A DNA stretch of 64,000 nucleotides from positions 1 to 64,000 of the IMG/VR virus record IMGVR_UViG_3300033463_000093. One strand, written 5' to 3'. The translations under genes and the position numbers were made by a program. Of the stretch, positions 580 through 43,251 are shown one piece after another (position 1 is the first letter of the stretch; every line of letters starts with the position of its first letter). Under the pieces are notes generated by a model, which worked only from the letters and a program-made list of their open reading frames with translations, made no database searches and was not told the origin of the DNA. The stretch is from a virus (lineage: Duplodnaviria > Caudoviricetes).

Positions 580-580
580 T

Positions 581-1990: not shown

Positions 1991-2027
1991 TTCACTTTAA
2001 TATTAACTCTTTAAAATTTCAACAATT

Positions 2028-2333: not shown

Positions 2334-2336
2334 GCC

Positions 2337-2813: not shown

Positions 2814-2814
2814 T

Positions 2815-2985: not shown

Positions 2986-3041
2986 ATTGACCGGCGGGGA
3001 GGGAGGTTCCTCTCTCCCTGCCTTAAAAAAGGAAAAGAAGA

Positions 3042-3641
3042 ATGAAGATACCGCAACCTATAGTGTTGGCCACATCGTCAGGTGTTGCGTCGCTGATAGG
3101 CGTGTTCTGGCATAATTCCGTGGAGGTGATGCTTCCGTGGCTGCTGGTCGTCGTGTCAGCAGTCATTGCCGACCTTGCATCCGGACACTACAAGGCGGGC
3201 AGGCTTGGCATCCACTTCGCATGGTCGACGGCATTCAGAGAATCGTTTGGCAAAGTGGTTGTTTACATTGCCTTTGTCATGACGGCGGCTATGTTCGACG
3301 TGGCCGTGAAAGGGAATGCGCTGATTGCAAAGTGGCTATGCATCTTCGTCTCAGCGGTGGAGATAGGGAGCGTGTTCTCGAATATCCTTATCTGTCATGG
3401 CGTCAAGCTTTCTCTGAAGGCTATACTGAAGTTCCTTCTGAAGAAGTCACCCTTCGGCATCGACGACGAGGCAGCTGACGAAATCATAAAGACCGCCAGA
3501 CGGGAGGACAGGAAATGGAACAAACTTAAGTCAAGGAAGTTCAAGGAGGACGAAGAACCTCTGAATGCGTTTGTGAAGAGTGCCATCACCAAGGAGACGG
3601 ACGAGGAAACGGGAAGGACAGTTTATCATCATAACCTATGA
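3042..3641 (+). CDS. Holin (Phage_holin_4_1-like)
   Basis: Three hydrophobic segments, ADLASG..WS.AFRES.GK, EIGSVFSN motif; upstream of the endolysin. Confidence 0.75.
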   Translation: MKIPQPIVLATSSGVASLIGVFWHNSVEVMLPWLLVVVSAVIADLASGHYKAGRLGIHFAWSTAFRESFGKVVVYIAFVMTAAMFDVAVKGNALIAKWLCIFVSAVEIGSVFSNILICHGVKLSLKAILKFLLKKSPFGIDDEAADEIIKTARREDRKWNKLKSRKFKEDEEPLNAFVKSAITKETDEETGRTVYHHNL

Positions 3642-3754
3642 GGAGGATATTGGATATATTAAAGAGAATGGCCATGTTCTTCTTCGACGTAGAAGAGAAG
3701 ATGGTTGACGAGTTCGAGGGCTACGACCCTGAAACAAACATGGAGGACTAAGTT

Positions 3755-4291
3755 ATGGCAAAAGCTGAGATATTAAAGGATTTTATAAAAAGCTGGGAGG
3801 GGGGCTATTGCAACGTACCAGGCGACAAGGGAGGGCACACGAACATGGGAGTTACGCTTGCAACCTACAGAGAGGTGTTCGGGCAGGAGCGCACCGTGGA
3901 AGACCTGAAGACGCTTACAGACATAGAGTGGATGTATATCTTCGAGAAATACTATTGGGAGAAGTGGAAGGCTGACGAGATAGAGGACCAGTCCATTGCC
4001 AATCTCCTTGTGGATTGGGTATGGGCAAGCGGCGTCTATGGCATCAGGATCCCGCAGTACACTCTCGGTGTCGAGCAGGACGGCATCGTGGGACCGAAGA
4101 CCCTTGCGGCCATCAACAGCTACAAGGACAAGGAGAAGCTGTTCAAGATCCTGTGGCAGGCACGGAGGGATTATTTCATAAGGATTGGGAAAGGCACGCA
4201 GAAGAAGTTCCTCAACGGATGGCTCAGGCGTCTCGACGGCATCCGGTACAGGAGGCTTGTGTGCAACGGAGGAAGGACAATAACGTTTTAA
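3755..4291 (+). CDS. Endolysin, glycoside hydrolase family 108 with peptidoglycan-binding domain
   Basis: WEGGYCNVPGDKGGHTNMGVT catalytic motif; DGIVGPKT; KFLNGWLRR. Confidence 0.92.
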   Translation: MAKAEILKDFIKSWEGGYCNVPGDKGGHTNMGVTLATYREVFGQERTVEDLKTLTDIEWMYIFEKYYWEKWKADEIEDQSIANLLVDWVWASGVYGIRIPQYTLGVEQDGIVGPKTLAAINSYKDKEKLFKILWQARRDYFIRIGKGTQKKFLNGWLRRLDGIRYRRLVCNGGRTITF

Positions 4292-4303
4292 AGGTATAAG
4301 GGT

Positions 4304-4843
4304 ATGAGAAAGTTTTTGTGGATATTGGCAGTAGTGGTGCTTGTCGGTTGTAGGACGATAAACAACGAGGAGAGTTATGTTGAGAGGCACCGGCTCGAGA
4401 GCATGATCGAGCGCATGGACTCCCTTGTGAGCAGGAGCTATGTAATCCAGCAGGACTCTTCGTGGCGAGAGCTTGTCATGCGCCAGTTCGAGAGCATCAA
4501 GGAGAAGAGTGACACAAGCCATATACAGGTCGTCGATACGGCAGGTAATGTCATCAAGGAGACGATAGTCATCAACAACACAAGGGAGGTCGTCTCGGAG
4601 AAAGAGCGTCAGGAAATTGTCGGGCTGCGTCATTCCGTTGAGAAGCTTGACTCCACGGTGACCGTCCAGAACGAGCAGATAAGCAGGATGGACTCCCTGC
4701 TGAAGGAGAGCGTCAAGGAGAAGACCATAGAGAAGCAGCTGTCATGGTGGCAGAAGATAGTGATGCAATGGAAGGGGATGCTTCTTGGATTGGCTATCGG
4801 AGTTGTGGTGCTCCTTGTGTTGAAATGGAAAAAAGTTATATAA
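4304..4843 (+). CDS. Spanin-like lipoprotein
   Basis: Signal peptide with LVGC lipobox, coiled coil, C-terminal TM; follows the endolysin. Confidence 0.7.
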   Translation: MRKFLWILAVVVLVGCRTINNEESYVERHRLESMIERMDSLVSRSYVIQQDSSWRELVMRQFESIKEKSDTSHIQVVDTAGNVIKETIVINNTREVVSEKERQEIVGLRHSVEKLDSTVTVQNEQISRMDSLLKESVKEKTIEKQLSWWQKIVMQWKGMLLGLAIGVVVLLVLKWKKVI

Positions 4844-5029
4844 TTAATATTGTTTTAGGTTATTTGATTGTTTTTTTCTTTAGTTATTTACAGGTTTTCG
4901 GTTAGTAATGACACATTATGTTCACAGCGGTGACGGTCTCATCAGAATCACATGAATTATTTACACAGCGGTGGTAACTTTCATTTATTAGGTTCGTTTG
5001 TATTGAGGAATTGATTGTTTTAGTTTGAA

Positions 5030-5065
5030 ATCCCCGCCGTCCGTGAGGATAGCGGGGATCTTTTC
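5030..5065 (+). terminator. Rho-independent terminator ending the late/lysis operon
   Basis: ATCCCCGC/GCGGGGAT stem followed by CTTTTC, at the convergence of + and - operons. Confidence 0.7.
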
Positions 5066-5084
5066 TACAATGCTTTCATACTGA

Positions 5085-5261
5085 TTATAAATTATAATTA
5101 TTATTCTCTAAATCTTCGAGGTACTTATAGAATACCGTATGGTAATCATTATTTTGTGTTATAGAAATAACAGTCATTATAGTATTATAACCTTTCTCTT
5201 CTAATGAGTTCAAAAAATCAACAGTTTCTTTTCTCCCACGACATATTTCACTTTTAATCAT
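5085..5261 (-). CDS. Hypothetical protein (58 aa)
   Basis: Manual translation MIKSEICRGRKETVDFLNSLEEKGYN...; ATGA overlap with the upstream gene. Confidence 0.5.
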   Translation of the reverse strand: MIKSEICRGRKETVDFLNSLEEKGYNTIMTVISITQNNDYHTVFYKYLEDLENNNYNL

Positions 5262-5692
5262 AACAATTCCCTTTCGTTTAATTGTTTAATCATTTCAACG
5301 CAAGCATCAACAAAATCATCATAAGAATCTGTCCAAATATCATATTCACCCGTATCATCAAGTTCATATCTATAACAAAGTTGATATTGATTATCTTCCT
5401 TGTAAATATTAAAAAAATAACTTACGCCTTCTTCATTCACTATTTCATAGTCCAATACACCGAGCAATGCTGCAAGACTCCAGCAAGGAAAATAGGATAT
5501 ATTTTTATACTTCTGCCTCCATGATTTGTTATACTTGTTAAATGGAACGCATAATGCTTGATGTAACCCATCAAACTTACTATCACTTGTCTCATAAGGT
5601 TCTTCGTGAAGAAGTACCATATCCGCACTTTCAAGCGGCAGTGTTTTTGCCAACTGCTTGCTCTGTTTTAAATCGGTTGCTATCTTTGCCAT
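5258..5692 (-). CDS. Hypothetical phage protein
   Basis: ATDLKQSKQL..LPLESADM..PCWSLAALL pattern recurrent in Bacteroidota phages. Confidence 0.7.
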   Translation of the reverse strand: MAKIATDLKQSKQLAKTLPLESADMVLLHEEPYETSDSKFDGLHQALCVPFNKYNKSWRQKYKNISYFPCWSLAALLGVLDYEIVNEEGVSYFFNIYKEDNQYQLCYRYELDDTGEYDIWTDSYDDFVDACVEMIKQLNERELL

Positions 5693-5694
5693 AA

Positions 5695-6219
5695 CTATAA
5701 TTTTTTCAGATCTTCGAATAGCGTTCTTAAAACCTTAATATCTTCTTCTTTGTATATACCAGAAAAAGACAAAGCTAACACCCTCATTTGCTCTTCGCTC
5801 GGCTTCCAGTGTTTCTGAGGACGGAGAGATTTGTATGATATTGCAAAGTTTTTTAATTCTTGACTGTTAGTACCATGTCTTTCTAAAAATTGTTTATCAC
5901 TTGCTGAAATAGTATAAGCCATCTCTTTAATAGCACCAAGTATTCTTTCATCTTCCTCGCTCCACTCTACAGGCTTCTGCTTTTCGAGCCAAGAAAGTGC
6001 TTTTTTTGCGTCTTCGATACTTACATCGTTATAATCATCATCAATAATAGCTTGCTGGATATCCTGAATTAGCCATTTTCTGATTCTTTCATCCTCTGAC
6101 TCTGCAAGCTCTGGGAAGATGTATTCCACAAGATTCCCGTTACTTTCCGCATACAGCTCCTTCTTGTGAAACTTCTTTGCTCTTTCTAATGCCTCGTTGT
6201 ATTTCTTCTCGTAGTCCAT
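5695..6219 (-). CDS. Modular hypothetical protein, MDYEKKY family
   Basis: Shares N-terminus and WSEEDE / KSLRPQK.WKPSEE modules with 10706..12106. Confidence 0.75.
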   Translation of the reverse strand: MDYEKKYNEALERAKKFHKKELYAESNGNLVEYIFPELAESEDERIRKWLIQDIQQAIIDDDYNDVSIEDAKKALSWLEKQKPVEWSEEDERILGAIKEMAYTISASDKQFLERHGTNSQELKNFAISYKSLRPQKHWKPSEEQMRVLALSFSGIYKEEDIKVLRTLFEDLKKL

Positions 6220-6230
6220 AACATTTACTT

Positions 6231-7619
6231 TTAAGTTAATTCTATTGTCTCTACTACCTTGTTCTGGTAAGAACTCGATCCTTCTTCCTTGAACCTGATG
6301 AGCTTCATGACTACTCCATTCTCGTAGACCTCAAACAAAGCTCCTTCCGATGCACCATAGAGGGTCTTGTTGTTTCCGTCCACAGGTTTTGACAGCGACG
6401 GCAGACCGATAGTCCACCCGGCGTTTCCGCAAGGCTCGTCGGTAGCTTTTGTATAAAGCCTGTAGTCATACTGCGTGTTGGTCAGAGAGTAAAGGTCGTC
6501 AACGAGCGGCATGACTTCATTCCCGGTAGGTTTAACAATCGGGTAGTCGTGTTTGCAGGCTGATATCTTAGGCGTTGCAACACGATGGTTATGACCGCCT
6601 ACGAATATGGCGTTCGGATACTCATTGTTGAGTTTGTCCAAAAACCAAAAAGTTAGTCCACACAACGTGTTGCTTCCAGCATAGTATTTGTTCCGCTCAG
6701 CATCCGTCTCTGGGTGCGGCCAAATACGAAGATGGCTGTACTGGCCGTCGGAGTCTCCAGCTTTGTGAGGGAAGAAAAGATGATGCGGAATGATGACACG
6801 ACGTTTCTTGTTCGCCTCCAAAATGTCCCAAAGCCAACACAACACCTCTGGGTTGTAGAACTGGTAGTCAAATGCTGCCTCCCTTGTACGGTTGTAGTTG
6901 GTATCAGAGACGTATTCAGTCATTCTTTTCACGAACGGGTCATTGTAGTCCAAAAGGTTCCAGCCTCGCGACACATCGTCCCAAGGTTGCCCGTTTGATT
7001 CTCCGTAGTCGACAGACATGCACACGAACATATCTTCGTATTTCTTGAACCAGTAGTTGAGCTTCGACTTGATGGTTCTGTTCCCAGAGTACGGAAGGTC
7101 GTTCCATTTTGCACCATACTCAAAGAAGTGAAGGGCACTCTCAGGCTCATGGAATGGAGATATATTTGTCTGCCACACCATCTCACGGCTTGCATATTTC
7201 TGCTTGTCGTAATCATCAAAAGGATGATAGAGCATCAAATAGTCGTGGTTTCCAAGGACAGAATGGAGTTGCAGTTTGCCGCCTGTAGGAGCAAAGGCGT
7301 GCTCGGTGTAAATGCGATTGAACTGCTCGAAGTCCTCGTAGTTATACTCGCAGATGTCTCCGCAGTTGATTATAAAGTCTGCGCCTTCGTCGATGTAGTA
7401 ATGACACGCATTGATAAGGTCAGCGACATACTCGGAGTTTTTTGAATCTTCCTTGTTGACATGCTCGTCCGATATTCCACCGAAAGTATAGAGGTGCTTG
7501 CCCAAGTCCTTCGGCTGTGGCTGTTCTACACTTGGCTCTGTGGCCGTTTCCTGTTCCCTGACCTTGACGGTGATTTCCTCACCTTGTTCAAGGATGATTG
7601 TCTTTCCGTTAATTTCCAT
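6231..7619 (-). CDS. Calcineurin-like metallophosphoesterase
   Basis: Motifs SDEH, CGDI, LGNHD, PHH, GGHNH; start re-called at MEINGK. Confidence 0.85.
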   Translation of the reverse strand: MEINGKTIILEQGEEITVKVREQETATEPSVEQPQPKDLGKHLYTFGGISDEHVNKEDSKNSEYVADLINACHYYIDEGADFIINCGDICEYNYEDFEQFNRIYTEHAFAPTGGKLQLHSVLGNHDYLMLYHPFDDYDKQKYASREMVWQTNISPFHEPESALHFFEYGAKWNDLPYSGNRTIKSKLNYWFKKYEDMFVCMSVDYGESNGQPWDDVSRGWNLLDYNDPFVKRMTEYVSDTNYNRTREAAFDYQFYNPEVLCWLWDILEANKKRRVIIPHHLFFPHKAGDSDGQYSHLRIWPHPETDAERNKYYAGSNTLCGLTFWFLDKLNNEYPNAIFVGGHNHRVATPKISACKHDYPIVKPTGNEVMPLVDDLYSLTNTQYDYRLYTKATDEPCGNAGWTIGLPSLSKPVDGNNKTLYGASEGALFEVYENGVVMKLIRFKEEGSSSYQNKVVETIELT

Positions 7620-7855
7620 AATTATTATGTTTTTCGTCCCACTTTTTAACCATATACTTAATCGCAAAGTAAGCAATCGCAACGCTTACAAGAAAAGCTA
7701 AATTAGCCAATGTTAGTTCATTCATACTCATTCCTCGTTTAAATCTTTCTTTGCCAACTTTTTTAAATTTAGTACGGCTTTTTCAAGTTGTTTCTCCTTG
7801 CCTTTTAGCCGTTTTCTTAATGAATCTGGGATTTTGTCAATCATACTCAGTCCTC

Positions 7856-8053
7856 CTATTCGATTACAATGAGAGTAATTCTTCTTTTTAAGTTCGGATT
7901 CTTAATGTAGCAATCTTCAAACTCGTCACCGCACATGCAAGAAAGATAATGCTTGCATTTTTCGCATATTTCTTTTTTCATTTCCATGTTATTTCTCATT
8001 AAAATGAAATTCAATCCAACCAACTTTTGTCTTAACTTCAAGATAATCAACAT
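7856..8053 (-). CDS. Small Cys-rich hypothetical protein
   Basis: CEKCKHYLSCMC..C; true start probably the internal Met. Confidence 0.4.
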   Translation of the reverse strand: MLIILKLRQKLVGLNFILMRNNMEMKKEICEKCKHYLSCMCGDEFEDCYIKNPNLKRRITLIVIE

Positions 8054-8174
8054 TTGTATCTATCTGCTTGCCAAGTTCCTCATGCCAGTGCTCTAAAAAT
8101 TTCTTATAATGTCTAAACGGTACACCGTCTATCTCAAAGACTTGCTGCCCGCTTATCCTTACAACCTTTGCCAT
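7989..8174 (-). CDS. Hypothetical protein
   Basis: Packed small ORF in the minus-strand block. Confidence 0.55.
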   Translation of the reverse strand: MAKVVRISGQQVFEIDGVPFRHYKKFLEHWHEELGKQIDTNVDYLEVKTKVGWIEFHFNEK

Positions 8175-8276
8175 ATCAGTCCTCCTTTCCTTTATTCCCG
8201 CCAGCCAAAGCCAGCAGAGCTAATGTTAATACACAGCCAATTAATAGGCCGACTAAAAATACAATGATAAACTGTG

Positions 8277-8561
8277 TCATATCCTCCCTCCTTCTTCATA
8301 CTTCCAGCCCGGCAACCTATCACAGCCTGCTTGTTCACGTCCGCATTTAGTACAACGATATATGCCTATTAAAGAGCCATATGTAGTAGGACTCAATCCG
8401 ACATATGTCATCTGATGAACACAGTTCTCTTGGTCAACAGGATATTTTTTCACTTTATCTCCATCCATTTCCTGTTTCCATTCGCTCCACCAATGTTTTT
8501 TTGTATAACGGATAAGATAAGAATTTTCTTTCTCTGCTACAAGTATAAATTTTTCTTTCAT
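8277..8561 (-). CDS. Hypothetical protein with Zn-ribbon
   Basis: C.H...YRCTKCG. Confidence 0.6.
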   Translation of the reverse strand: MKEKFILVAEKENSYLIRYTKKHWWSEWKQEMDGDKVKKYPVDQENCVHQMTYVGLSPTTYGSLIGIYRCTKCGREQAGCDRLPGWKYEEGGRI

Positions 8562-8565
8562 ATTA

Positions 8566-8778
8566 CTATTCTTTTACATTTTCATCAATATAGTCTCTGA
8601 GAAACGACAGTTCCTGATTAGCAGAAACAATAAGCGTTTCTAACTGCCTACGAGCAGCAATAACCCTATTGGAGTTCTGTAATGCAGCACTTGACACATA
8701 TTCTCCAATCCACTTGTCAATGTCACCACAGAGTTTGTCAATATCCTGTAGTACTTCTTGTTTTGTCATATCAGTCAT
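8566..8778 (-). CDS. Hypothetical protein
   Basis: Overlaps the upstream stop; helical composition. Confidence 0.6.
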   Translation of the reverse strand: MTDMTKQEVLQDIDKLCGDIDKWIGEYVSSAALQNSNRVIAARRQLETLIVSANQELSFLRDYIDENVKE

Positions 8779-9286
8779 CCTTAATGATTATCACTTTTAC
8801 TTTATCGCCTTGTTTTAATAACCCATTATTAACAGCTTCAGTTATAAGCCTAATTTCTTCTCCGCCATCAAGACAAAACTCTGTAGGCTCATTTTCGTAA
8901 GTAATAGGATATATCTTGTCATTATAGACAATAGCCTTGTTAATAGTCTGTTGTTTCTGCCACTGAGCACCCGCTTTTATTGCTGTCAACACTAATTCTT
9001 CCGACCAAGCTGGTTCTTCGCGCTCATTAAGACTACCTTTATTAATGGTATCACAAGCGTCTGGCTCTATGTTTTTAAGGATACTTTTTGCCGCTTCTTC
9101 CAAGTCATTGCTTACAGGCTCTTCTGGGAGGGAGTTGATGAACTTTAAGAGCATCTGCATCCTTGTATAAACTACAGGGCTTGAAGGACTCGGTTCAAAA
9201 CCTCCTTGGCATTGTTCTTCAAATAATGACATTTCTTCTGCCATTATTCTTTCAATCTCGGCTTTAATTTTATCTTTATCTGTCAT
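8771..9286 (-). CDS. Hypothetical phage protein
   Basis: LPEEPVSNDLEEAAK..AGAQWQK..GDKVKVIIIK modules recurrent in Bacteroidota phages. Confidence 0.7.
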   Translation of the reverse strand: MTDKDKIKAEIERIMAEEMSLFEEQCQGGFEPSPSSPVVYTRMQMLLKFINSLPEEPVSNDLEEAAKSILKNIEPDACDTINKGSLNEREEPAWSEELVLTAIKAGAQWQKQQTINKAIVYNDKIYPITYENEPTEFCLDGGEEIRLITEAVNNGLLKQGDKVKVIIIKDD

Positions 9287-9564
9287 ACATCATCATGTCT
9301 TCTATAATCTACACATTTTTCTACAAGATTACTTCCGTGCTCAAAACATTGGCCAAAGCCTTCATAGTGTATACATTCTATGCAACCACATTGTGTCGTT
9401 AATGGTTGTTCTTTGTCTGTCATAACATTTTCGTATTTAGTTCTTACTTTATATTCTTTATCAATGTGCGCTATTGGCACTCTGTTAAACGGCTTGCAAA
9501 ATTTCCATATTAATCTTTTATTAAAAGGATTCTTGAGCCATTTCTTGTATATTCTACGTTTCAT
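9283..9564 (-). CDS. Hypothetical protein
   Basis: ATGA-coupled; Cys cluster at the C-terminus. Confidence 0.55.
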   Translation of the reverse strand: MKRRIYKKWLKNPFNKRLIWKFCKPFNRVPIAHIDKEYKVRTKYENVMTDKEQPLTTQCGCIECIHYEGFGQCFEHGSNLVEKCVDYRRHDDV

Positions 9565-9567
9565 AAC

Positions 9568-9747
9568 TCAATAGTTCTTTATATCCAAAAAATACTCACA
9601 CTTATCTACTTTCTTATCCAAGGTGTACATAGACACCAGTCCTGAGTAGAACTTTGCTCTATTACCTAACCAGAACCTGTAACAGCAAACCTTGCTGGCA
9701 CACTTCTCGTTTTTGCAATGAAGCATATCTCCCTGATAATACGGCAT
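9568..9747 (-). CDS. Small Cys-rich hypothetical protein
   Basis: HCKNEKC..CCYRF..KCEYF; start re-called at MPYYQ. Confidence 0.55.
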   Translation of the reverse strand: MPYYQGDMLHCKNEKCASKVCCYRFWLGNRAKFYSGLVSMYTLDKKVDKCEYFLDIKNY

Positions 9748-9748
9748 A

Positions 9749-10159
9749 CTATTCCTCCTTATGTTTGTTTTCAAACAACTCACACGCTTTATCACTTAGA
9801 TTGACACAATAGTTCCTCTTAATTTTCTTCCCCCAAGTGCGTGCATCACAGAGATACATTTTGAGCCATCCAGACGGGTGACGAACACAATGTACACAGT
9901 TCCTACATCTCAGAGCTTTCTTCTTCTCTTCCTGTTCAAGCAGCCATCTTCGTTTGATTTCAGCTCTCAGTTCTTCTGTTGTAATTACTTCTTTCTCCAA
10001 GTCCACCTCTTTCACTTCAAGGGTGTCAAGAAAAGAAAGTAAACTTCCACAAACATATCTCTTCCCGAATACTTCATCCGTAAATGGTTCATAGTTTGTT
10101 TCGTGTTTTATTCTTTCTATCTCCGCTACTAAAGCGGATTTGTCAATATACTGTTTCAT
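9749..10159 (-). CDS. Hypothetical protein
   Basis: YIDKSALVAEIERI..LLSFLDTLEVKEVDLEKE; CRNCVHC; start re-called. Confidence 0.65.
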   Translation of the reverse strand: MKQYIDKSALVAEIERIKHETNYEPFTDEVFGKRYVCGSLLSFLDTLEVKEVDLEKEVITTEELRAEIKRRWLLEQEEKKKALRCRNCVHCVRHPSGWLKMYLCDARTWGKKIKRNYCVNLSDKACELFENKHKEE

Positions 10160-10340
10160 AACTATTTTTGTTTTAATTATGAGGGAATCTGAAGAATCGA
10201 ACTCCACATAACAAGATATAAGCACCTTCACTACAACAGAACTTTTAGAAAGAGAGTGCTTCTGCTGGTAACATCCTTATACTTCTGTTGATTCAGCTCT
10301 CGTTAGTCACCAAGAGATTCCCTACTATTTTTACTCCTCC

Positions 10341-10703
10341 TTATACTTTAATTTCCTTTTCAATGCCACAAAGTTTGATGGCGTGCTGTAGTTCATGAAC
10401 GTACATACAAGTAACCAATTCGCAAGTACCATTATCAGAGTGAATTTTTAATATAGTTCCACACCAAGATATTGAAAATTCGTCAGTATCAAAACATAGC
10501 CATCCGTCCCAATCTTCAAACCCATTCTGCTCCAATATCTCAGGAGTAAGAGGAATAGGCTCTATTTCATCGTATCTTAACGGAAACGCAGCCTCGGTGT
10601 AAACACTATTGCTATCAATATTGGTCACCGTAGTATTGTGCTGAGTTAACTTAACCATTACCCAATCCCCAATCATGATTGATCTACAATCTAACTTCTC
10701 CAT
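10341..10703 (-). CDS. YopX-like phage protein
   Basis: MIGDWV..IEPIPLTPEILEQNGF..VHELQHAIKLCGIEKEI. Confidence 0.6.
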   Translation of the reverse strand: MEKLDCRSIMIGDWVMVKLTQHNTTVTNIDSNSVYTEAAFPLRYDEIEPIPLTPEILEQNGFEDWDGWLCFDTDEFSISWCGTILKIHSDNGTCELVTCMYVHELQHAIKLCGIEKEIKV

Positions 10704-10705
10704 AA

Positions 10706-12106
10706 CTATCCTCCTATTTCTTTTAGTCGCTCATATAATTCTCTCAAAAGACTTACCTTATAAATCCCTCCATTGGCAGCATTGTTCAGATTGTCAAGAT
10801 GTTCCTCACTCGGCTTCCACTGCTTCTGAGGACGGAGGGATTTGAGCCAATCAACACATCTATCTCTGTCAAGTTGTACACAAAATCCAGCGCGTAAAGC
10901 ACTGTCTATAATATCAGTAGATAGTCTAATACATTTCTCATCCTCTTTATTCCGCTCATGTTGTGGTTGTACTCTGTCTTTGAGGGATTTGAGCCAGTCT
11001 TCTGCATACCAGAGATTACCCATATCATTTTCATCTTTGGCAATAGTTCTTGCTTGTTTTATCGCCCACAAAGCATCATTTAAACCAGCTTCGTCCTCTT
11101 CACTCCACTCTTGCTTTGGCTGCTCAATCTTTTTCAATTCTTTCTTTTCAAAGTCAAAGGTATATCCAGCTTCGTGCATCTTTTGGAATAAGAGGTCACG
11201 CTGTTCTTTGGTTGCGGGTTCTAAATCCATTTCACTAACTATACCATAATCAGCAGGGTCGGTTCCTGTAAACTTATTTTTATTTATCCAAAAATCACAA
11301 TAAACCTTTATCCATCCACAAGTTTGTGACTTGAATATTAAAATGGTATTAGTTTCATTTTCATATAATACATCCCCATCCTTTGCATCTTGGATAGTCC
11401 AGAGCATTGCGTTTTCCATCTTTTTAGAAGAAAGCCATGTTCCTTTTGTAAACCAGTAATGAAAAGTTCCATCAAGCACAGTGTCTATACATGATATTTG
11501 TAGTGTTTTGCCATTTCGTACCACCCAGTCACCAATCTTAAACTTTGGTTCAACCTTATCAGCAGGTTTCTGCTCACCTTGATTTTCAAAGGATTTAATA
11601 TAATGTTCTCCCTCTTTCCAATGTTTAACGATATAGTCTAATTGGCTACCGTGTTCAGTATTACAAACGCCTTTAGTAAGTTCTTTCCAATAATTACCAA
11701 GCTCCCATACATTACGAATAATTTCTTCTAACGGAATGATTTCTTCACTTTGCTTTTCATCTTTCTTTGCTACTCTATTAAGTTGGGAAAGATTGACAAG
11801 CACACCATCCTCGTTCTTTGTTACCTTGTCACCAACTTGGATAGAGTCACGGAACTTTTTATGCTCTGCTTGCTCTTCAAGATAAGCAATAATATCCTTA
11901 ACTGGCATACCGTTCCATTCTTCCTTTGTCTTGTTCCTGAAATGATAAAGAAGATGTTTACTTATCCTCTCATCATCGCTCTCTGTGAGTTCTGGAAAGA
12001 TTGATTCATAATCTTCCATGTCTGATGTATATTCATTGGCTTTTGCCTCGTTATATAATTTACGGGCAGTCGCTAAAGCTTTTTCGTACTTTTCTTTGTA
12101 GTCCAT
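10706..12106 (-). CDS. Modular hypothetical protein, MDYKEKY family (466 aa)
   Basis: Concatenated modules incl. PKFKIGDWVV, WTIQDAKDGDVL, PATKEQRDLLF, WSEEDE. Confidence 0.8.
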   Translation of the reverse strand: MDYKEKYEKALATARKLYNEAKANEYTSDMEDYESIFPELTESDDERISKHLLYHFRNKTKEEWNGMPVKDIIAYLEEQAEHKKFRDSIQVGDKVTKNEDGVLVNLSQLNRVAKKDEKQSEEIIPLEEIIRNVWELGNYWKELTKGVCNTEHGSQLDYIVKHWKEGEHYIKSFENQGEQKPADKVEPKFKIGDWVVRNGKTLQISCIDTVLDGTFHYWFTKGTWLSSKKMENAMLWTIQDAKDGDVLYENETNTILIFKSQTCGWIKVYCDFWINKNKFTGTDPADYGIVSEMDLEPATKEQRDLLFQKMHEAGYTFDFEKKELKKIEQPKQEWSEEDEAGLNDALWAIKQARTIAKDENDMGNLWYAEDWLKSLKDRVQPQHERNKEDEKCIRLSTDIIDSALRAGFCVQLDRDRCVDWLKSLRPQKQWKPSEEHLDNLNNAANGGIYKVSLLRELYERLKEIGG

Positions 12107-12843: not shown

Positions 12844-13425
12844 TTATCCTCTTAATGACTGTCCCTTGAACAGGACGGTTGTAGTTATCGACCTGAGTCT
12901 GTCTATAGTACGCTCGCCGTATCTGTCGGCGATCTCCTTGAGCCCAAGATTGGTTGATGCAATGAGCAGCTTCTGCTTTCGCTCACAGAGATCGACAAGC
13001 TCGCGGAAGAAGTCGTGCTTCTCTCCGAACTGGTTCGCTATGTCCTCCGTTCCCACGTCGTCGACGGAGATAATCTTATACCGGCTTATCTCCTCATACC
13101 TTGCAGACAGCTCCGTTGCGGTCAGCGTGTTGACGATTAGGCCGTGCCAGTGCCGGAAAACGATAGGAAGGATCCTCTGCGTTATCAGGGACTTGCCCCT
13201 TCCGCAGTTGCCGTAGCACAGAATCCCACGGCTCTTGTTGTCGGCCATCCATTCCGCCACCGACTCGTATTCCGGCAGCCATTGTGTACTGTCGCCGCAG
13301 AAATGCACAAGGCCACGCATGAGCACACGCCTTGCGTCAGCCGTCTCTATGTGTACACGGGTGTCATCGGCACGGAATCCGCTGATGCGCTGGCTGTCTA
13401 TTATCTCCTTTAGTTCATTCACCAT
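12844..13425 (-). CDS. DnaC/IstB-like AAA+ helicase loader
   Basis: Walker A GNCGRGKS, Walker B ISVDDVG, ASTNL..RYGERTIDRL. Confidence 0.88.
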   Translation of the reverse strand: MVNELKEIIDSQRISGFRADDTRVHIETADARRVLMRGLVHFCGDSTQWLPEYESVAEWMADNKSRGILCYGNCGRGKSLITQRILPIVFRHWHGLIVNTLTATELSARYEEISRYKIISVDDVGTEDIANQFGEKHDFFRELVDLCERKQKLLIASTNLGLKEIADRYGERTIDRLRSITTTVLFKGQSLRG

Positions 13426-14156
13426 GATTTTAAGTCGTTTTCATATTTTTCCGGATTGTTGTCTTTCAGATCAAACCCAAGAGGGAGAGTGTCACGCTTC
13501 ATCTGATTGTTCTTCCATGTCCTGACGGCAGCCTTCCAGTCCTTTATCGGGTTATGGCCCTTTCCGTAGACCCAGCCAACCATCTCGTAATGGTCGAATA
13601 TCTTTTGTGCGTCCAGGTTATATCCCTTCTCGATGATATATGCCCTGATTTCCTCAACCGTAGGCTTGACGAACTTTGATGTCCTCTTTCGTTCCCCCTT
13701 GGGGGATAAAGGGGGATTATTCTTTTTAAGTTCTTCATTAAGACATGATATATAATTATCATTCTTATATGCGCGAGGTGTATCGTTTGGTGTATCGTTT
13801 GGTGTATCACTAACACACTCCAAATCCTTTGTAGACGGGCTTTTAGGTGTATCGTTTGGTGTATCGTTTGGTGTATCATTTAGTGTATCACTCACTGTAA
13901 AGACAGTAATTCCGTTAATCTTTGAGACCGTGATGTACCCTTCGTCTGACACGGCCTTTATGAACCTCTGCACCTTTGCGAGACACCACCTCCACCTGTC
14001 TGCGAGCGCACGGATGCTGACGGTAACCATTCGTGTCTTGAAGTCCGCCGACTGGTATATGTCTGTCAGCGCCTCATACTTGCTGAACACCCTTTTCTCG
14101 TTCCAGATGTCAGAAGAGAAGACCTTCCGTGGTATCTTTATAAATCCTTTGCACAT
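13419..14156 (-). CDS. Replication initiator (lambda O-like)
   Basis: N-terminal wHTH (SIRALADRWRW), internal DTPN repeats, C-terminal PTVEEIRAY..FDHYEMVGW..KDWKAAVRTW; adjacent to the helicase loader. Confidence 0.85.
   Translation of the reverse strand: MCKGFIKIPRKVFSSDIWNEKRVFSKYEALTDIYQSADFKTRMVTVSIRALADRWRWCLAKVQRFIKAVSDEGYITVSKINGITVFTVSDTLNDTPNDTPNDTPKSPSTKDLECVSDTPNDTPNDTPRAYKNDNYISCLNEELKKNNPPLSPKGERKRTSKFVKPTVEEIRAYIIEKGYNLDAQKIFDHYEMVGWVYGKGHNPIKDWKAAVRTWKNNQMKRDTLPLGFDLKDNNPEKYENDLKSW
13777..13891. repeat. Iteron-like 12-bp tandem repeats, putative ori
   Basis: GGTGTATCGTTT units in two blocks (13777-13810, 13846-13891; 7 GTGTATC cores) next to an AT-rich tract, inside the initiator gene. 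Confidence 0.7.
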
Positions 14157-18120: not shown

Positions 18121-18236
18121 TGCAGGAAGGGAGACTCGAACTCCCGTATCAGGACTTCAATTATGGCGAAGGAAATAAATGAATCTTATCAACTGACGTA
18201 TGTCGCCTGACACGTTCTGCCTTTCGGACTTCCTGC
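18121..18236 (-). ncRNA. tRNA-like RNA with an expanded anticodon domain
   Basis: Acceptor GCAGGAA/TTCCTGC + A, T-arm GGGAG-TTCGAGT-CTCCC, 7-bp stem TGTCAGG/CCTGATA enclosing 52 nt. Confidence 0.65.
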
Positions 18237-19252: not shown

Positions 19253-20212
19253 ATGGATAAGAAAGAACGCTTTAATAAGGCGTACGGCTTCTTAAAATAC
19301 GAAGGAGTCATAAAGAAACAGGAGGACGTGGCCAGGGCGATGGGCGCCTCTCCCTCAAACGTATCGAGCGCCCTGAAGGGAAGGGAGGCCGTGCTCACGG
19401 ACAACTTCCTGATGCGCTTTGCGAATGCCTTCAAGCAGATATCACTGACATGGCTCCTGAACGAGGAAGGGCCGATGTTGACTGTCGTGCCTGAGTTCAA
19501 GGACGAGAACATGCCGCAGGTGCTTGAGGGCAACGCTGACAAGGACGTCGTCGCAGAGCAGAGCAAGATGACCGAGAGGATCAGGAGTCTCATACACGAG
19601 AAAGGACACCTCCCCAAGACGTTCGCGCTTGAGGCGAACATAGAGGTCTCTCTGTTCCTTCGCAAGATGAAGGGAGACATCGTATGGTCTGTTGCCGACG
19701 TACACAAGATATGTGATGCGTTCCGTGTCAGGAAGAGCTGGCTCGTCGACGGTGACGGACAGAAGTACCGACTGCCGCAGGAGGTGCTGGAGACCATACC
19801 CGCACGGTCTAACAACGCGCGCGTAGGCGTACCTTATTTTAACGTGGACTTCGAAATGGGCTACGACGTCATGATAAACGACCAGACGACGAACCCCGAG
19901 TACATGATAAACTTTTTCCCATACAACAAGGCCGACTGCTGGTGCAACGCACGGGGCGACTCCATGCACCCGACGATATCCAGCGGTGACCTCATCGCCA
20001 TCAAGGAGGTGCGCGACCCGATGTCCTGCCTCATCAGCGGTGAGATATACGCCATCGTCACGACGAACGACATGCGTACCATCAAGCGTGTGCGAGACAA
20101 CGGGGAGACGGTCACCCTTATCCCAGATAACAAGGACTATCCGGAGCAGACCATATCAAAGTCGTTGATACTGAAGGTTTACAGGGTGCTCGGGAGCATG
20201 AAGACTTTCTGA
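19253..20212 (+). CDS. cI: CI-like repressor, two HTH domains plus S24 peptidase
   Basis: HTH1 ending WLLNEEG, HTH2 ending WLVDGDG, ARGDSMHP (Ser) and TIKRV (Lys). Confidence 0.9.
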   Translation: MDKKERFNKAYGFLKYEGVIKKQEDVARAMGASPSNVSSALKGREAVLTDNFLMRFANAFKQISLTWLLNEEGPMLTVVPEFKDENMPQVLEGNADKDVVAEQSKMTERIRSLIHEKGHLPKTFALEANIEVSLFLRKMKGDIVWSVADVHKICDAFRVRKSWLVDGDGQKYRLPQEVLETIPARSNNARVGVPYFNVDFEMGYDVMINDQTTNPEYMINFFPYNKADCWCNARGDSMHPTISSGDLIAIKEVRDPMSCLISGEIYAIVTTNDMRTIKRVRDNGETVTLIPDNKDYPEQTISKSLILKVYRVLGSMKTF

Positions 20213-20280
20213 CAGAATAATACAATAGTAATACGCATGCGACGAAAACAGCAGGTAACCGACTGAGAACCAGCTTCCGC

Positions 20281-20302
20281 TTCAATTCCCCTATCGACTA
20301 CA
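20281..20302 (+). other. Putative attP core resembling a tRNA 3' end
   Basis: TTCAATT-CCCCT-ATCGACT-A-CA reads as T-loop, T-stem half, acceptor half, discriminator; no 5' half; immediately upstream of the integrase. Confidence 0.55.
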
Positions 20303-20331
20303 AGGTGGTGCGGAAGCACCACTTTTGTTTT
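20303..20331 (+). terminator. Rho-independent terminator
   Basis: AGGTGGTGC-GGAA-GCACCACTT followed by TTGTTTT. Confidence 0.75.
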
Positions 20332-20492
20332 GCCCGTAAACAAAGGGTTTCTCGCCTGAAACGTCGATATACAAAGGATTCCACGGAATACAACCCTCAG
20401 ATTTTAGTTGCGAAAAGTGTCGTTTAGTATGGCCAAGTTGCATCAAAAGTAATACAAATAGTAATACACTCTCACAAAAAATGTAATACACT

Positions 20493-21668
20493 ATGTTAGT
20501 ACCAAAGATAACATTCGTGTTCGACCGCCGTGGAAAGGCGGACAGGACGCACAAGGGGAGCATCGAGCTCAGGATAACGTGGCAGAGGAAGCAGAAGTTC
20601 ATCTCCACGGGCATCACCGTCTTCCCCAATCAGTGGAAGGGCGGCAACCCGTACGTCTCCGGTTACGAGACGTCAGGCGAGGACAACAGGATGCTCTCCG
20701 CCCTCTGGAGCCGTGCCCACAAGATCGTGTCGGAGCAGGTGGAGAGCGGCGAGATAGACCTCGATGCCATTCCGAGGATGCTCAAGCCCGGCGAGGGCGC
20801 TGGCATCACATTGCTACAGTATATCACCAGGCGCCTTGAAAGGCAGAACGTGCAGGAGTCGACATACCGACAGAAGGTGACGTTCTACAACAAGCTGCAT
20901 GAGTACGGCAGGATAAGGCTCTTCTCCGATGTCTCAGAGAAGGCCGTCCGTGATTTCGACGAGTGGCTGCACGCCTACGAGTGGACCGAGAGCGACAAGT
21001 TCGGCAACGAGGTCAGGAAGAAATACTCGCAGGCCACCATCGGCTCGTTCCACAAGAACCTCAAGGCGTTCATAGCGGATGCCGTCGTCGACGGATACCT
21101 CAAGGAGAACGTGTATGTCGCAAGACGCATCAAGGTGGACAAGGGTACGACGAGGATAGACCAGTACCTGACGGCAGAGGAGATATCCCGCCTGCTTGCC
21201 GCAGACATGCCGACAAAGTCGCTCGCAGAGGCGCGAGACCTGTTCGCCGTACAGATTCTGACGGGCATGGCGTACATAGACCTTATGGAATATGACTTTG
21301 CCAGACTAAAAGACATGGAAGTCGGTTCGGTGTGCCACGGAAGGCGGCGGAAGACTGGTACGGAGTTCGTGTTCGTGTTTACCGAGAAGGCGAGGGACAT
21401 CCTTGAGAGGTACGACTACCTTCTTCCGAAGGTCAGCAACCAGAAGTACAACACGAAGCTGAAGCTTGTGGCCGACGCGGCAGGCATAGACAGGCCGATC
21501 ACGAGCCACGACGGACGCAGGAGCTGCGGTTATGTGCTGCTGAATGCAGGCGTTCCCATCGAGGTGGTCAGCAGGGTTCTCGGACACTCGAGCATCAGCC
21601 AGACGGAACAGGCGTACGCAAGGATACTTGACGAGACGGTGGTAAAGGAAATTGGTAAGGTCATTTAG
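20493..21668 (+). CDS. int: Tyrosine integrase with arm-binding and SAM-like domains
   Basis: Bacteroidota Arm-DNA-bind N-terminus (SIELRITW..KFISTGI); catalytic TGMAY.D, K, HDGRR, LGH, Y. Confidence 0.93.
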   Translation: MLVPKITFVFDRRGKADRTHKGSIELRITWQRKQKFISTGITVFPNQWKGGNPYVSGYETSGEDNRMLSALWSRAHKIVSEQVESGEIDLDAIPRMLKPGEGAGITLLQYITRRLERQNVQESTYRQKVTFYNKLHEYGRIRLFSDVSEKAVRDFDEWLHAYEWTESDKFGNEVRKKYSQATIGSFHKNLKAFIADAVVDGYLKENVYVARRIKVDKGTTRIDQYLTAEEISRLLAADMPTKSLAEARDLFAVQILTGMAYIDLMEYDFARLKDMEVGSVCHGRRRKTGTEFVFVFTEKARDILERYDYLLPKVSNQKYNTKLKLVADAAGIDRPITSHDGRRSCGYVLLNAGVPIEVVSRVLGHSSISQTEQAYARILDETVVKEIGKVI

Positions 21669-21691
21669 CCTTACCAATCCTTACCGGCGCC

Positions 21692-22006
21692 TTACCGATG
21701 GGGCTGTTCCGCCCCACCCTCTTCACATTCCCTGAGCTTTTCCTTGAGCCATTCTATGTGGGCGCTGAGGCGCCTGCACTCGCGCCTTTTCTCGACAAGC
21801 TTCTCGTAATAGGCGTCTCTCGACACCTGTGCCTTTGCAAGCCTGTCGCCCTGAGCCTCTATCTTCTGCTCAAGCGACCTGGCATAGGCTGCGAGGCGGT
21901 CGTTCTGTTCGAGCAGCCATCTGTAGTGCTCGATGATGTGCTTCATCCGCTGCTCGTAGGGCAGGTCGTCCTGCGGCCTGCGCCTGGATCCTGTTTCAAT
22001 GTTCAT
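21692..22006 (-). CDS. Coiled-coil hypothetical protein (104 aa)
   Basis: Start re-called at MNIETG; heptad pattern. Confidence 0.55.
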   Translation of the reverse strand: MNIETGSRRRPQDDLPYEQRMKHIIEHYRWLLEQNDRLAAYARSLEQKIEAQGDRLAKAQVSRDAYYEKLVEKRRECRRLSAHIEWLKEKLRECEEGGAEQPHR

Positions 22007-22014: not shown

Positions 22015-22971
22015 TTATTGGTTTTCCTCTGTCTTCGGCTGGAAGTACGAGAACGCTGCCGGCGACACCTGCCGCTCTGCGCAGATGTACCGCTTGGTCG
22101 TCTCGATGTTCTTGCCGTGCCCCATCATCAGGGCGATGTCCTCGATGGGGACGTATGCGAGGTACAGGTTGGTGGCGAAGCTGCGCCTGCCCGTGTGGGC
22201 TGAGACGAACTGCCATTTCGGTCCCGTCACCTCCTCGTCCTCCCTGTTTATCGTCACGTTCCTGTTGATCCTGCACGCCTTGCAGATGCGCCTGACGTAG
22301 TCGTTGAACACGTCAGGGCAGCACTCGCGCCTGTATCGGTCCGCGAGGAAGTTGCGCAGCGACATCCCCTCGTCGACAGGAACGTTCACGACGATCTTCG
22401 GCGTCTTCTTCGGGATGTAGGATATCATCTGCGTGTCGATGTTGCAGTTGTCGATGGTGAAGCGTATGGCGTCGCAGTAGCGTGCGCCCGTGAGGCACAT
22501 CACGACGAAGTTGCGTCGCACGAACCTCTCTATCTCTCCCACCACCGTGTAGTTCATGATGCGCTGTATCTCCTCGCGCGTCAGGTAGACGTGTTGTGAC
22601 ACGCTGCCCTTGATGGTCAGCTTGCGCATGTATTCCTCTGACGGGACCTTGCGCCTGTTGTCGTTGATGACGGCCTTCAGCTCTGCGCATATCGTCTTGA
22701 CGGAGGAGGACTTCATGTTGCTGTCCTGCATGGAGAAGACGAAGTCGTCGAGGGTGTCGTCGGTGAGGTCTTCCCATACGGGGACGTGGCCGACGATCTC
22801 CTTGAGCCGGTCAAGCGTCTTCGTGCGCCCGGGCCAGTCATGGATGAACTTGCCTACGAAGGTGTGCCAGAAAAACTGTGGCGCATCCTCGTAGCCGTCG
22901 AAGTATCCAGCCCTGATGGCAGCCTGGTACTTCAGGTTCTTTTCGTAGGATAATCCTTTGATTTCTATCAT
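22015..22971 (-). CDS. Second tyrosine recombinase (318 aa)
   Basis: TGARY (R), PKKT (K), HTGRR (HxxR), MGH, KRY (Y) all intact; no arm-binding domain. Confidence 0.9.
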   Translation of the reverse strand: MIEIKGLSYEKNLKYQAAIRAGYFDGYEDAPQFFWHTFVGKFIHDWPGRTKTLDRLKEIVGHVPVWEDLTDDTLDDFVFSMQDSNMKSSSVKTICAELKAVINDNRRKVPSEEYMRKLTIKGSVSQHVYLTREEIQRIMNYTVVGEIERFVRRNFVVMCLTGARYCDAIRFTIDNCNIDTQMISYIPKKTPKIVVNVPVDEGMSLRNFLADRYRRECCPDVFNDYVRRICKACRINRNVTINREDEEVTGPKWQFVSAHTGRRSFATNLYLAYVPIEDIALMMGHGKNIETTKRYICAERQVSPAAFSYFQPKTEENQ

Positions 22972-22979
22972 ATCCGGTG

Positions 22980-22987
22980 CAAATTTA
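22980..22987 (-). promoter_or_regulatory. -7 promoter element for the second recombinase (near-leaderless mRNA)
   Basis: TAAATTTG ends 8 nt before the ATG. Confidence 0.5.
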
Positions 22988-23100
22988 ATAATATTATTTT
23001 AAATACATGAAAATTCGGTTGTAAAAAGTGAGGCGGAGGGGACTTCACACCCCTCCCGTGGCCGATTCGGACGGCACAGCCCCCAGTGGTGAGACACCGT

Positions 23101-23406
23101 TCATCCCGTCTCGACGTACGGGGTCATGTCGCATGCGGACACGATGTCCTGCCATACGCCTGTGATGTCGTCGTCCCATTCCCCGTCGCCGTGCTGCTGT
23201 ATGAGCCCGCACTCGGAGGTCATCGGGAACGAGTACACGACGAACGGGTGCATCGCCCCGTCGTCATCCTCGAACAGGTGCTTCGAGAACGAGAGCGAGT
23301 AGGATATACCGTCGCAGCTCTCGCACTTCATCCTCCACACCGATTCGTCGTCAGGGAGCCTGATGATCCTGTCCCTGAACTCTTCAAAAGTGAGATAATG
23401 TTTCAT
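23101..23406 (-). CDS. Hypothetical early protein
   Basis: 101 aa, acidic. Confidence 0.65.
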   Translation of the reverse strand: MKHYLTFEEFRDRIIRLPDDESVWRMKCESCDGISYSLSFSKHLFEDDDGAMHPFVVYSFPMTSECGLIQQHGDGEWDDDITGVWQDIVSACDMTPYVETG

Positions 23407-38947: not shown

Positions 38948-39520
38948 ATGATACTCGGGAGTCACAATTCATGGTCGTACCTCCCCGTGAAAAGGTGGTG
39001 GATGAGGCCGCTGGCGTTCATGGCGCGCTGCCAGTCCGTCGACATCAAAAGGCAGTACGAGCTCGGCGTCAGGTGCTTCGACCTGCGGGTGCGCTTTGAA
39101 TACGGACAGTTCCTGGTCGCACACGGCATAATAGAATACGACATCGACAGGGAGGCTCTGAGGAAAGACTTGGAGTGGATAGACGCCAGAAAGGACTGTA
39201 TGGTTAGGGTGCTGCACGAGGTGAGGACAAAGAAGCAGTATGAAACCACATCGAAGATCTTCTTTGAGAGCTTCTGTTATGTTATTCAGTCGGACTACAG
39301 GAACATCCGGTTCTGGAACGGCAGGAACCTCTACAACGAGGAGAAGGACTACGACTTCGGATGGGAGCCGTCCAACGACGGGAAGTACGCCTCCGTCTGC
39401 CCGCCGTGGCTCGTCGACGACTGGTGGCCGTGGCTGTATGCTCGGCTGCACAACAGGAGGAACCTCGAAAAGGGGACCGACAAGGAGGTTTTATTGATAG
39501 ATTTTGTAGACATAAAATGA
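38948..39520 (+). CDS. PI-PLC X-domain-like phosphodiesterase
   Basis: GSHNS, ARCQ..I..QYELGVRCFDLRVR..VAHG. Confidence 0.8.
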   Translation: MILGSHNSWSYLPVKRWWMRPLAFMARCQSVDIKRQYELGVRCFDLRVRFEYGQFLVAHGIIEYDIDREALRKDLEWIDARKDCMVRVLHEVRTKKQYETTSKIFFESFCYVIQSDYRNIRFWNGRNLYNEEKDYDFGWEPSNDGKYASVCPPWLVDDWWPWLYARLHNRRNLEKGTDKEVLLIDFVDIK

Positions 39521-41566: not shown

Positions 41567-41948
41567 TGCACGGTCTCCCCAGCAGCTCCACGGCCTTGCG
41601 CATCAGGAAGCCTATCGTCCATGCGAAGTCCTCCGTGTAGGGCCTGACGTAATAATGTTCGCAGATGGCCGACGCGGCATGGTACAGCTCGTGCGTCACC
41701 GTGTCCCAGAACTGTTCCCCCGATGTCGCGTTGCCGATGAAGACGAGGCTCATCCTGATATCGTCCCTCGATACACACATTCCTGTGTTTTCCCGGAACA
41801 GCAGTATGTCGACGGCCGTGTCGAGGCTTCCTCCCCGCATGCCGAACGACATCATTGCCGCCCTCATCTCGTATTCGTCGAGCCTGCGCAGGTCCGAGCA
41901 CAGGATGACGCCCCAGTCGTCATCGACGTTTATGTAATCCTTCCTCAT
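41550..41948 (-). CDS. Zincin-like protein (HExxH)
   Basis: DTVTHELYHA..E.FAW. Confidence 0.65.
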   Translation of the reverse strand: MRKDYINVDDDWGVILCSDLRRLDEYEMRAAMMSFGMRGGSLDTAVDILLFRENTGMCVSRDDIRMSLVFIGNATSGEQFWDTVTHELYHAASAICEHYYVRPYTEDFAWTIGFLMRKAVELLGRPCNDDKP

Positions 41949-41951
41949 GGC

Positions 41952-42350: not shown

Positions 42351-42421
42351 TCTTTTGAAAGTTTATGGTTGATTACTTGAACCCGGGGGCATCCCATGAC
42401 GGGACACCCCCTTGTCGTTGA

Positions 42422-42655: not shown

Positions 42656-42675
42656 AGTCTTAACATTTTAGGGAC

Positions 42676-43218: not shown

Positions 43219-43251
43219 TGTTTGAACCTTTTTAATGTTGATACTCCCTGA

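Follow-up and report, generated by a model that had tools for sequence, protein, structure and literature searches.

A predicted simple tyrosine recombinase beside the integrase of temperate phages from Bacteroidales

The 64,000-nucleotide (nt) stretch of DNA analysed here, hereafter called the window, comprises positions 1 to 64,000 of the 72-kb IMG/VR virus record IMGVR_UViG_3300033463_000093 (Duplodnaviria; Caudoviricetes) and is syntenic with the Bacteroides phage LoVEphage. Besides the gene of an arm-type integrase, int1, the window carries on the opposite strand a second tyrosine recombinase gene, rec2, which is located near the distal end of an array of small accessory genes separated by hairpin-containing linkers. 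The best overall explanation of our results, held with about as much confidence as doubt, is that rec2 belongs to a clade of accessory simple recombinases of Bacteroidales temperate phages, with a mode of action similar to those of Cre and Xer. It is neither the lysogeny integrase nor an integron integrase. As to its function, the likeliest role, which is proposed here tentatively, is to act on the DNA of the phage itself, for instance by monomerising or circularising genomes that are being replicated.

The catalytic domain of the rec2 product was recognized by Pfam over residues 129–297, with a PF00589 score of 40.8 bits against a cut-off of 27.1. The same scan gave zero matches to arm-binding or SAM-like domains (neither Arm-DNA-bind nor SAM_5), and in PHROGs the protein falls into generic integrase families. 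Residues R164, K189, H259, R262, H285, and Y295 were all invariant in an alignment with 26 homologues sharing 50–66% identity. The AlphaFold2 model (mean predicted local distance difference test, pLDDT, of 88.4) displays an N-terminal half made up entirely of helices, lacks a beta-sheet arm domain, and has a catalytic domain of the usual type. An earlier reading of the window, made from the sequence only, had described an intact R-K-HxxR-H-Y set and the lack of an arm-binding domain; the former is borne out by the PF00589 score and the invariant residues, and the latter by the Pfam scan and the helical N-terminal half of the model. Judged from its sequence and predicted structure, rec2 appears to encode a catalytically intact 'simple' member of the tyrosine recombinase superfamily.

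In the fold search, XerA, lambda Int (residues 75–356), IntI, Tn1549 Int, XerH, and Cre were tied at Z scores of 12–14; the value for Cre was 12.2, with 262 residues aligned. Comparison of the rec2 profile with PDB sequences returned no match. The fold search also matched MrpR (8a0a, Z 9.7) and SroF of phage phi3T (9rd5, Z 10.1), as would be expected if rec2 encoded a DNA-binding regulator that has a recombinase fold and does not recombine DNA, like the SPbeta master repressor MrpR/YopR. The separate promoter of rec2 beside the lysogeny module and the repeated intergenic elements, which are available as potential binding sites, would suit a regulator as well. We nevertheless consider this highly improbable: none of the six catalytic residues, the tyrosine among them, varies within the family, bona fide recombinases fit the model better (Z 12–14), and a CI/LexA-type repressor is already encoded in the window.

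Relatives of rec2 were found as 222 proteins in the clustered collection and at 376 places in IMG/VR and 568 in metagenome contigs; the survey of gene context covered relatives other than the closest ones, P0003–P0008 (64–66% identity). The clade comprises rumen Prevotella-type phages, human-gut phages, LoVEphage, and phages of Porphyromonas gingivalis. A quick maximum-likelihood search of 41 recombinases, run without bootstrap and without reference IntI, Cre, or Bacteroides invertases, placed 19 small recombinases, including those of LoVEphage and the P. gingivalis phages, on one branch with a support of 98 in the Shimodaira–Hasegawa-like approximate likelihood ratio test (SH-aLRT). This branch was separate from two clades of large integrases and from the XerC-/XerD-like proteins of the host metagenome-assembled genome (MAG). 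Of the phylogeny proposed along with the sequence-only reading, against IntI, XerC/D, and Bacteroides invertases, the tree thus provides the Xer part, in which the host proteins fall apart from the rec2 clade; NCBIfam scores and the host's own recombinases were used in place of reference enzymes.

On the Xer models the rec2 product received 42 (XerA), 31.5 (XerD), and 27.2 bits (XerC), with cut-offs of 220–335 (329.6 and 335 for XerD and XerC), and the XerC-/XerD-like proteins of the host MAG reached 328 and 318 bits. The product scores far below the Xer cut-offs, rec2 is not a near-universal chromosomal gene, and we do not regard it as a Xer homologue. The gene was detected in only 6 of 301 Bacteroidaceae species genomes (E ≤ 1e-40), with the copies in G054, G083, and G297 located in a prophage beside int1, and because of this sporadic occurrence in hosts rec2 is regarded as a mobile-element gene. 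Two P. gingivalis phages of a different family, BK068103.1 (positions 41628–44329; L168) and PP754928.1 (L169), also carry a recombinase of the rec2 clade plus an end-located integrase. A 556-amino-acid (aa) open reading frame (ORF) with a weak recombinase domain (G054:C5:89503-89934) was observed on a Prevotella MAG contig, approximately 54 kb from the two recombinase genes of the prophage that this contig carries.

The region ahead of rec2 has, on the minus strand, the order TAAATTTG (positions in Table 1), then CACCGGAT, then ATG. The sequence TAnnTTTG is the −7 element consensus of Bacteroidetes primary-sigma promoters. A box of this type was present no more than 70 nt upstream of rec2 in 60 of 69 distinct upstream regions, versus 6 of 895 control regions, i.e. 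those upstream of other co-oriented ORFs from the same arrays. Alignments of the rec2 upstream regions revealed a conserved TATATTATAAA ... TAnnTTTGCA motif. In the rumen group its end lies 3–9 nt from the ATG, and in the gut groups it precedes a leader of the linker type. The layout in which a hairpin is followed by CACTTTTTA.A.CC and then by the promoter recurs in loci L004 and L011. The accessory genes upstream of rec2 have no promoters of their own. The claim that rec2 has its own promoter 8 nt from the ATG, made from the window alone, is therefore well supported by the wider comparison. The conserved host-type box suggests that rec2 forms a separate transcription unit, readable by the host polymerase, inside an otherwise promoter-less array. 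Expression independent of the phage early operon, perhaps in the lysogen, is plausible.

The gene had been described as lying at the distal end of the array. This position holds with one correction: rec2 is not quite the last gene, since a 104-aa coiled-coil ORF, which has weak coiled-coil Pfam matches only, comes after it (Table 1) and is probably co-transcribed with it. Homologues of this ORF (36–58% identity) occupy the equivalent position in L004/5, L007, L011, L034/L104, L089, and L097. In locus L034 a 276-aa gene separates the coiled-coil ORF from the integrase as an insertion; four AATTACC repeats with a spacing of approximately 11 nt precede the host-type promoter of this gene (L034:11390-11470), which has the appearance of an operator-controlled moron.

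Table 1. Features at and around rec2 in the window
Feature	Position	Strand	Description
rec2	22015..22971	-	318-aa two-domain tyrosine recombinase (core-binding + catalytic), without arm domain
TAAATTTG, Bacteroidetes-type −7 box	22980..22987	-	8 nt ahead of the rec2 ATG, near-leaderless; conserved in relatives
G+C-rich hairpin	23030..23060	-	At the end of the preceding transcription unit (gene 23101-23406), with CACTTTTTACAACC and then the rec2 promoter after it
Coiled-coil ORF, 104 aa	21692..22006	-	Starts 8 nt past the rec2 stop
GGTAAGG palindromic array	21641..21696	.	10-8-10 perfect inverted repeat 21651-21678 plus outer copies, between converging rec2 and int1
int1	20493..21668	+	391-aa arm-type integrase, convergent with rec2; true lysogeny integrase
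Probable attP of int1	20213..20492	.	GTAATAC arm-type repeats 20216-20236 and 20448-20490 flanking approximately 210 nt
LexA/CI-type repressor	19253-20212		Upstream of int1

The neighbouring gene, int1, encodes a protein with Phage_int_SAM_5 and PF00589 domains and a borderline Arm-DNA-bind_5 match (22.2 bits; cut-off, 22.6). The 280-nt gap between the repressor gene and int1 is flanked by GTAATAC repeats, in agreement with the arm-type integrase and putative attP that had been located at 20.3–21.7 kb before any database search. In L004, L006, G083, and G297, host genes begin just past the 5′ end of int1, and rec2 is internal to the prophage. The host genes at these junctions include uvrA and an aldose epimerase (L006), glycogen phosphorylase (L004), and large host-like genes (G083). 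No host DNA adjoined rec2 in the integrated examples. Since the host junction lies beyond the 5′ end of int1, it is int1, with its att site upstream, and not rec2, that serves as the lysogeny integrase. The initial view that rec2 is not needed for lysogeny agrees with these junctions and with the arm-type repeats around the int1 gap. A perfect 15-nt inverted repeat (18211-18225/20838-20852) joins a region of tRNA-like RNA with the int1 coding sequence, and a second, imperfect inverted match connects positions 18197-18218 and 21106-21127. The 15-nt repeat was set aside as probably due to chance, as about two such 15-mers are expected in the window.

In nearly all loci with enough sequence, an arm-type integrase gene (approximately 390–435 aa) was present on the opposite strand 0–8 kb downstream of rec2. 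The convergent pair occurs likewise in three Bacteroidaceae chromosomes, in LoVEphage, and in P. gingivalis phage022a. The pairing is loose with regard to descent. Namely, rec2 of the window shares 50–61% identity with relatives whose int1 displays no BLAST similarity to int1 of the window, while the nearest integrases to the latter (34–36%), those of LoVEphage and L016/L017, accompany small enzymes only 37–42% identical to that of the window. By sequence comparison, the integrase module has been swapped and the small recombinase retained. A relative of 73 kb (L007, record G001) possesses rec2 and no integrase of either int1 type. The mismatch of int1 genes among close rec2 relatives, together with this int1-less relative, suggests that the partnership of rec2 and int1 is not obligate.

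These data also bear on an auxiliary function of rec2 in integration or excision, either as an additional integrase that uses a different attachment site or as a partner or directionality factor of int1. The nearly constant location of rec2 beside int1 at the prophage end speaks in favour of this function, and so does the relative that has rec2 without an int1-type gene. A further point in its favour comes from phage022a, where the gene of the rec2 clade lies beside int in a short operon divergent from a CI-like repressor. On balance we regard an auxiliary function as unlikely. The two genes are not co-inherited, with two unrelated int1 types paired with closely related rec2, and up to 8 kb of cargo may separate them. 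In phage005b the distance is 24 kb, the small recombinase being encoded mid-genome and the large integrase at the prophage end. Moreover, no integrated example has host DNA beside rec2, and a search of 401 Bacteroidaceae genomes gave no match to the sole palindrome near it.

The linkers that separate the array genes contain TAGTCT, then a hairpin whose sequence varies, and then (A)TTATTAACC with a short leader behind it. The sequence-only reading had proposed that rec2 is the recombinase of these linkers, taking TAGTCT and the hairpin as its sites. This description of the sites had to be corrected: the TAG of TAGTCT is the stop codon, in frame, of the array gene upstream of each linker, to which TCT is added, and the bare hexamer shows no enrichment in the window, with 30 copies against an expectation of 25.6. 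In the gut relatives L012, L025, and L037 (positions 1–12000 of each), the linkers lack TAGTCT and consist of a hairpin, CTATTAACCA, approximately 12 nt, and AGAATTATG. Therefore, what is conserved widely among the linkers is the half made up of TTAACC and the leader, with TAGTCT confined to the rumen group.

Co-occurrence of rec2 with the arrays was assessed using a looser linker definition (hairpin, T[ACT]AACC, ATG). With this definition, strand-biased arrays were present in every group with a small enzyme that shares 40% identity or more with rec2 of the window, including the gut phages without TAGTCT. Among 49 records with the gut-type linker, taken as an unbiased sample, 34 contained rec2. 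Among the ten near-complete records of this sample, rec2 was found in eight, and the other two had no real array, so that all eight true-array genomes carry rec2; the array-bearing records without rec2 are all fragments of 46–87% completeness. Outside the closer clade, orthologues of rec2 were identified in phages without linker arrays, namely in LoVEphage, the Bacteroidaceae prophage L412, and P. gingivalis phages. The association holds without exception in complete genomes of the closer clade and breaks down in these phages beyond it. Within the clade of at least 40% identity, the co-occurrence represents a single shared inheritance, which neither proves nor rules out a link between gene and array. 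A scan of the collection for TAGTCT..TATTAACC was discarded, being swamped by chance matches. The idea that an N-terminal extension, seen in a long form of rec2, goes with the arrays was rejected, as L413 has the short form in an array.

A cassette recombinase would act at the stop–hairpin–TTAACC linkers and move genes into and out of the array, either like an integron integrase or like an Rci-type enzyme on asymmetric sites. The constant association of the gene with strand-biased arrays at 40% identity and above, its presence in all eight near-complete true-array genomes of the unbiased sample, and whole-cassette differences between related phages, with breakpoints near linkers, are in line with such an activity. 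However, the co-occurrence is a trait of one lineage rather than the outcome of several independent events, and positional orthologues exist without arrays in the three types of phages named above. The comparison with integron integrases is no more favourable: the TIGR02249 score is 17.3 bits (cut-off, 265), rec2 is co-oriented with the cassettes at their distal end and not divergent at an attI, and TAGTCT and TTAACC, the conserved flanks of the linkers, do not complement each other, with stems that vary freely. In L006/8/9 and L017, rec2 is itself bounded by ordinary linkers, like any cassette. An alternative route is also at hand. Sak/RecE-type systems recombine short homologies, and genes for a Sak annealing protein and a RecE-like exonuclease are present in the window; these could explain linker-mediated swaps without a dedicated recombinase. 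We therefore judge the proposal in its original form very unlikely. If rec2 did shuffle linkers, with one flank recognized in the Rci manner or a folded hairpin in the IntI manner, this would amount to integron-like gene capture in very common phages of the gut and rumen, an equally remote prospect.

The survey for candidate sites in the vicinity of rec2 revealed only one element that could be discussed as a core-type site, the palindromic array between the converging genes (Table 1). It contains four of the seven GGTAAGG heptamers of the window, is present in a single copy in the 72-kb record, and folds with −30.7 kcal/mol (z −4.6). No counterpart was found in 401 Bacteroidaceae genomes. The palindrome is not conserved; relatives have ordinary, unrelated terminator hairpins at this position. 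The simplest reading of the element is a bidirectional terminator hairpin, and it is a weak, although the sole, candidate for a lox-like site near rec2. The AATTACC cluster of L034 was rejected as its counterpart, being an operator-like array before a moron promoter.

Several iteron clusters were observed in the course of this survey. In the window, seven 12-nt iterons (GGTGTATCGTTT) form two clusters at 13777-13907 inside the gene of a DnaD-like helicase loader (13419-14156), 8 kb from rec2, and probably represent the phage replication origin within the initiator gene. In several relatives, approximately 450 nt of non-coding DNA directly upstream of rec2 contain eight iterons spaced by 12 nt, followed by a very AT-rich stretch (L006:9580-9900, L008:9710-9900, L009:9570-9900, and L007:9530-9780). 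The iteron word varies between TCACACA (L006/L008), GGGCACA (L009), and TGACACA (L007), and half of the copies are inverted in L006 and L009, but not in L008 and L007. These clusters were considered as a recombination site or invertible switch and dismissed, the AT-rich flank being more origin-like. The iteron cluster beside rec2 in L035 likewise adjoins AT-rich DNA and is origin-like.

An invertase had been named as one alternative to the cassette recombinase. In this case rec2 would flip a phage or host segment, for example a promoter of surface-structure genes, in lysogens. A protein of approximately 300 aa without an arm domain has the architecture of tyrosine invertases, and the host-type promoter would permit expression in the lysogen. 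No inverted segment was detected, however, in 84 related loci within 10 kb on each side of rec2, a test that covered the surroundings of the gene and no host targets. The search of the window gave no significant inverted-repeat pair near rec2. A 21-nt inverted match between 39357-39377 and 45177-45197 (20 of 21 positions) corresponds to a GWEPS coding motif shared by two opposed ORFs with unrelated flanks. The rec2 product (P0001) also has no match to the FimB/FimE-type models NF007370/1, which int1 and the host Xer proteins do match. An invertase is thus quite improbable and remains without support, while the other alternative named at the outset, a dimer resolvase, keeps its place within the tentative reading of rec2 as an enzyme acting on phage DNA.

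The proposed course of events for a Cre/Xer-like enzyme can be outlined as follows. The gene is a conserved accessory of these phages, situated a short way inside the prophage end and usually convergent with an interchangeable arm-type integrase, and would be expressed together with the coiled-coil ORF from the TAnnTTTG promoter by the host RNA polymerase. Its product, to judge by the domain architecture, would assemble as a tetramer on two short core-only sites and exchange strands through a 3′-phosphotyrosine at Y295. A number of points weigh against this explanation. No target site was found for rec2, nor any conserved lox- or dif-like site, and the palindrome beside it is not conserved in relatives and has a terminator-like fold. 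The phages in question integrate into the chromosome, so that a need for Cre-like plasmid maintenance is not evident. Resolution and circularisation could be covered by the XerC-/XerD-like proteins of the host and also by Sak/RecE of the phage. The activity of the promoter and the expression in lysogens are deduced from sequence, and the clade is drawn from a quick tree that lacks bootstrap and reference IntI, Cre, and Bacteroides invertases.

Phages of the LoVEphage type rank with the most prevalent temperate phages in the human gut, and relatives of theirs occur commonly in the rumen. By sequence, these phages, their rumen relatives, and the unrelated P. gingivalis phages all seem to keep a second intact recombinase. 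The gene is experimentally approachable: it forms its own clade, is retained while the integrase swaps, and has the sole host-type promoter in the accessory array; culturable systems, such as BI-TP1 and PV4-TP1, are available. An autonomous simple recombinase active in Bacteroidales could serve as a genetic tool. The importance of rec2 would be much greater if it acted on the linkers or on host DNA.

The closest described counterpart is the 'second integrase' of LoVEphage (QVQ57135.1; BI-TP1 gp60), which belongs to the same clade and shares 37% identity with the rec2 product; in P. gingivalis phages, small integrases such as DBA55742.1 are likewise members of this clade (27% identity). In both LoVEphage and phage022a the small gene is convergent on an arm-type integrase, as in the window, and in LoVEphage the pair lies beside repressor genes. 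LoVEphage differs in that its protein is shorter (272 aa), its gene directly follows a ParA-like gene with no intergenic gap, and linker arrays are missing. The gene in front (L001, 4649-5905) encodes a 418-aa ParA/Mrp-like ATPase and has no homologue in the other loci examined. The LoVEphage paper mentions 'two integrase proteins' and says nothing more on the small one (PMC8525569). We found no functional study of the small recombinase in the literature on LoVEphage, BI-TP1, and the P. gingivalis phages.

Among better known systems, arm-type integrases, both lambda-like and IntDOT-like, differ from rec2, which has no arm domain and is not located at the attachment site or host junction. MrpR/YopR has a similar fold (Z of approximately 10), but rec2 keeps the full catalytic set. 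The arrangement in the window resembles that of IntI and attC in that a tyrosine recombinase gene lies beside co-oriented, mostly promoter-less small genes split by hairpin-forming elements. The resemblance does not extend to the protein, whose match to TIGR02249 (17.3 bits vs. 265) covers residues 255–296 only and which has no NF011946 match. Nor does it extend to the layout: rec2 is co-oriented and distal instead of proximal and divergent with an attI and Pc, the linker flanks do not form complementary R''/R' cores of the RYYYAAC/GTTRRRY kind that bounds attC cassettes, and the gene is found also without arrays. The array itself, as distinct from rec2, may be compared with the promoter-early stem-loop (PeSL) shuffling of T4-type phages, in which cassettes are swapped at repeated stem-loop linkers by homologous recombination and no dedicated site-specific recombinase is needed; the Sak and RecE-like genes of the window fit this PeSL-like reading. 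In comparison to Cre and Xer, rec2 shows no family membership at the sequence level, the Xer models scoring far below their cut-offs, and is not accompanied by any conserved lox- or dif-like site that we could detect. The phages with rec2 integrate and are not plasmids, and their host has XerC-/XerD-like proteins of its own. The window palindrome with its 10-8-10 organization, set against the lox site of approximately 13-8-13, is single-copy, not conserved in relatives, and terminator-like. In architecture, the rec2 product has the two domains without an arm domain that are typical of Cre and of XerA, XerH, and XerS, with fold Z scores of 12–14, and, like Cre of phage P1 with its loxP sites, it is phage-borne and separate from the integration function.

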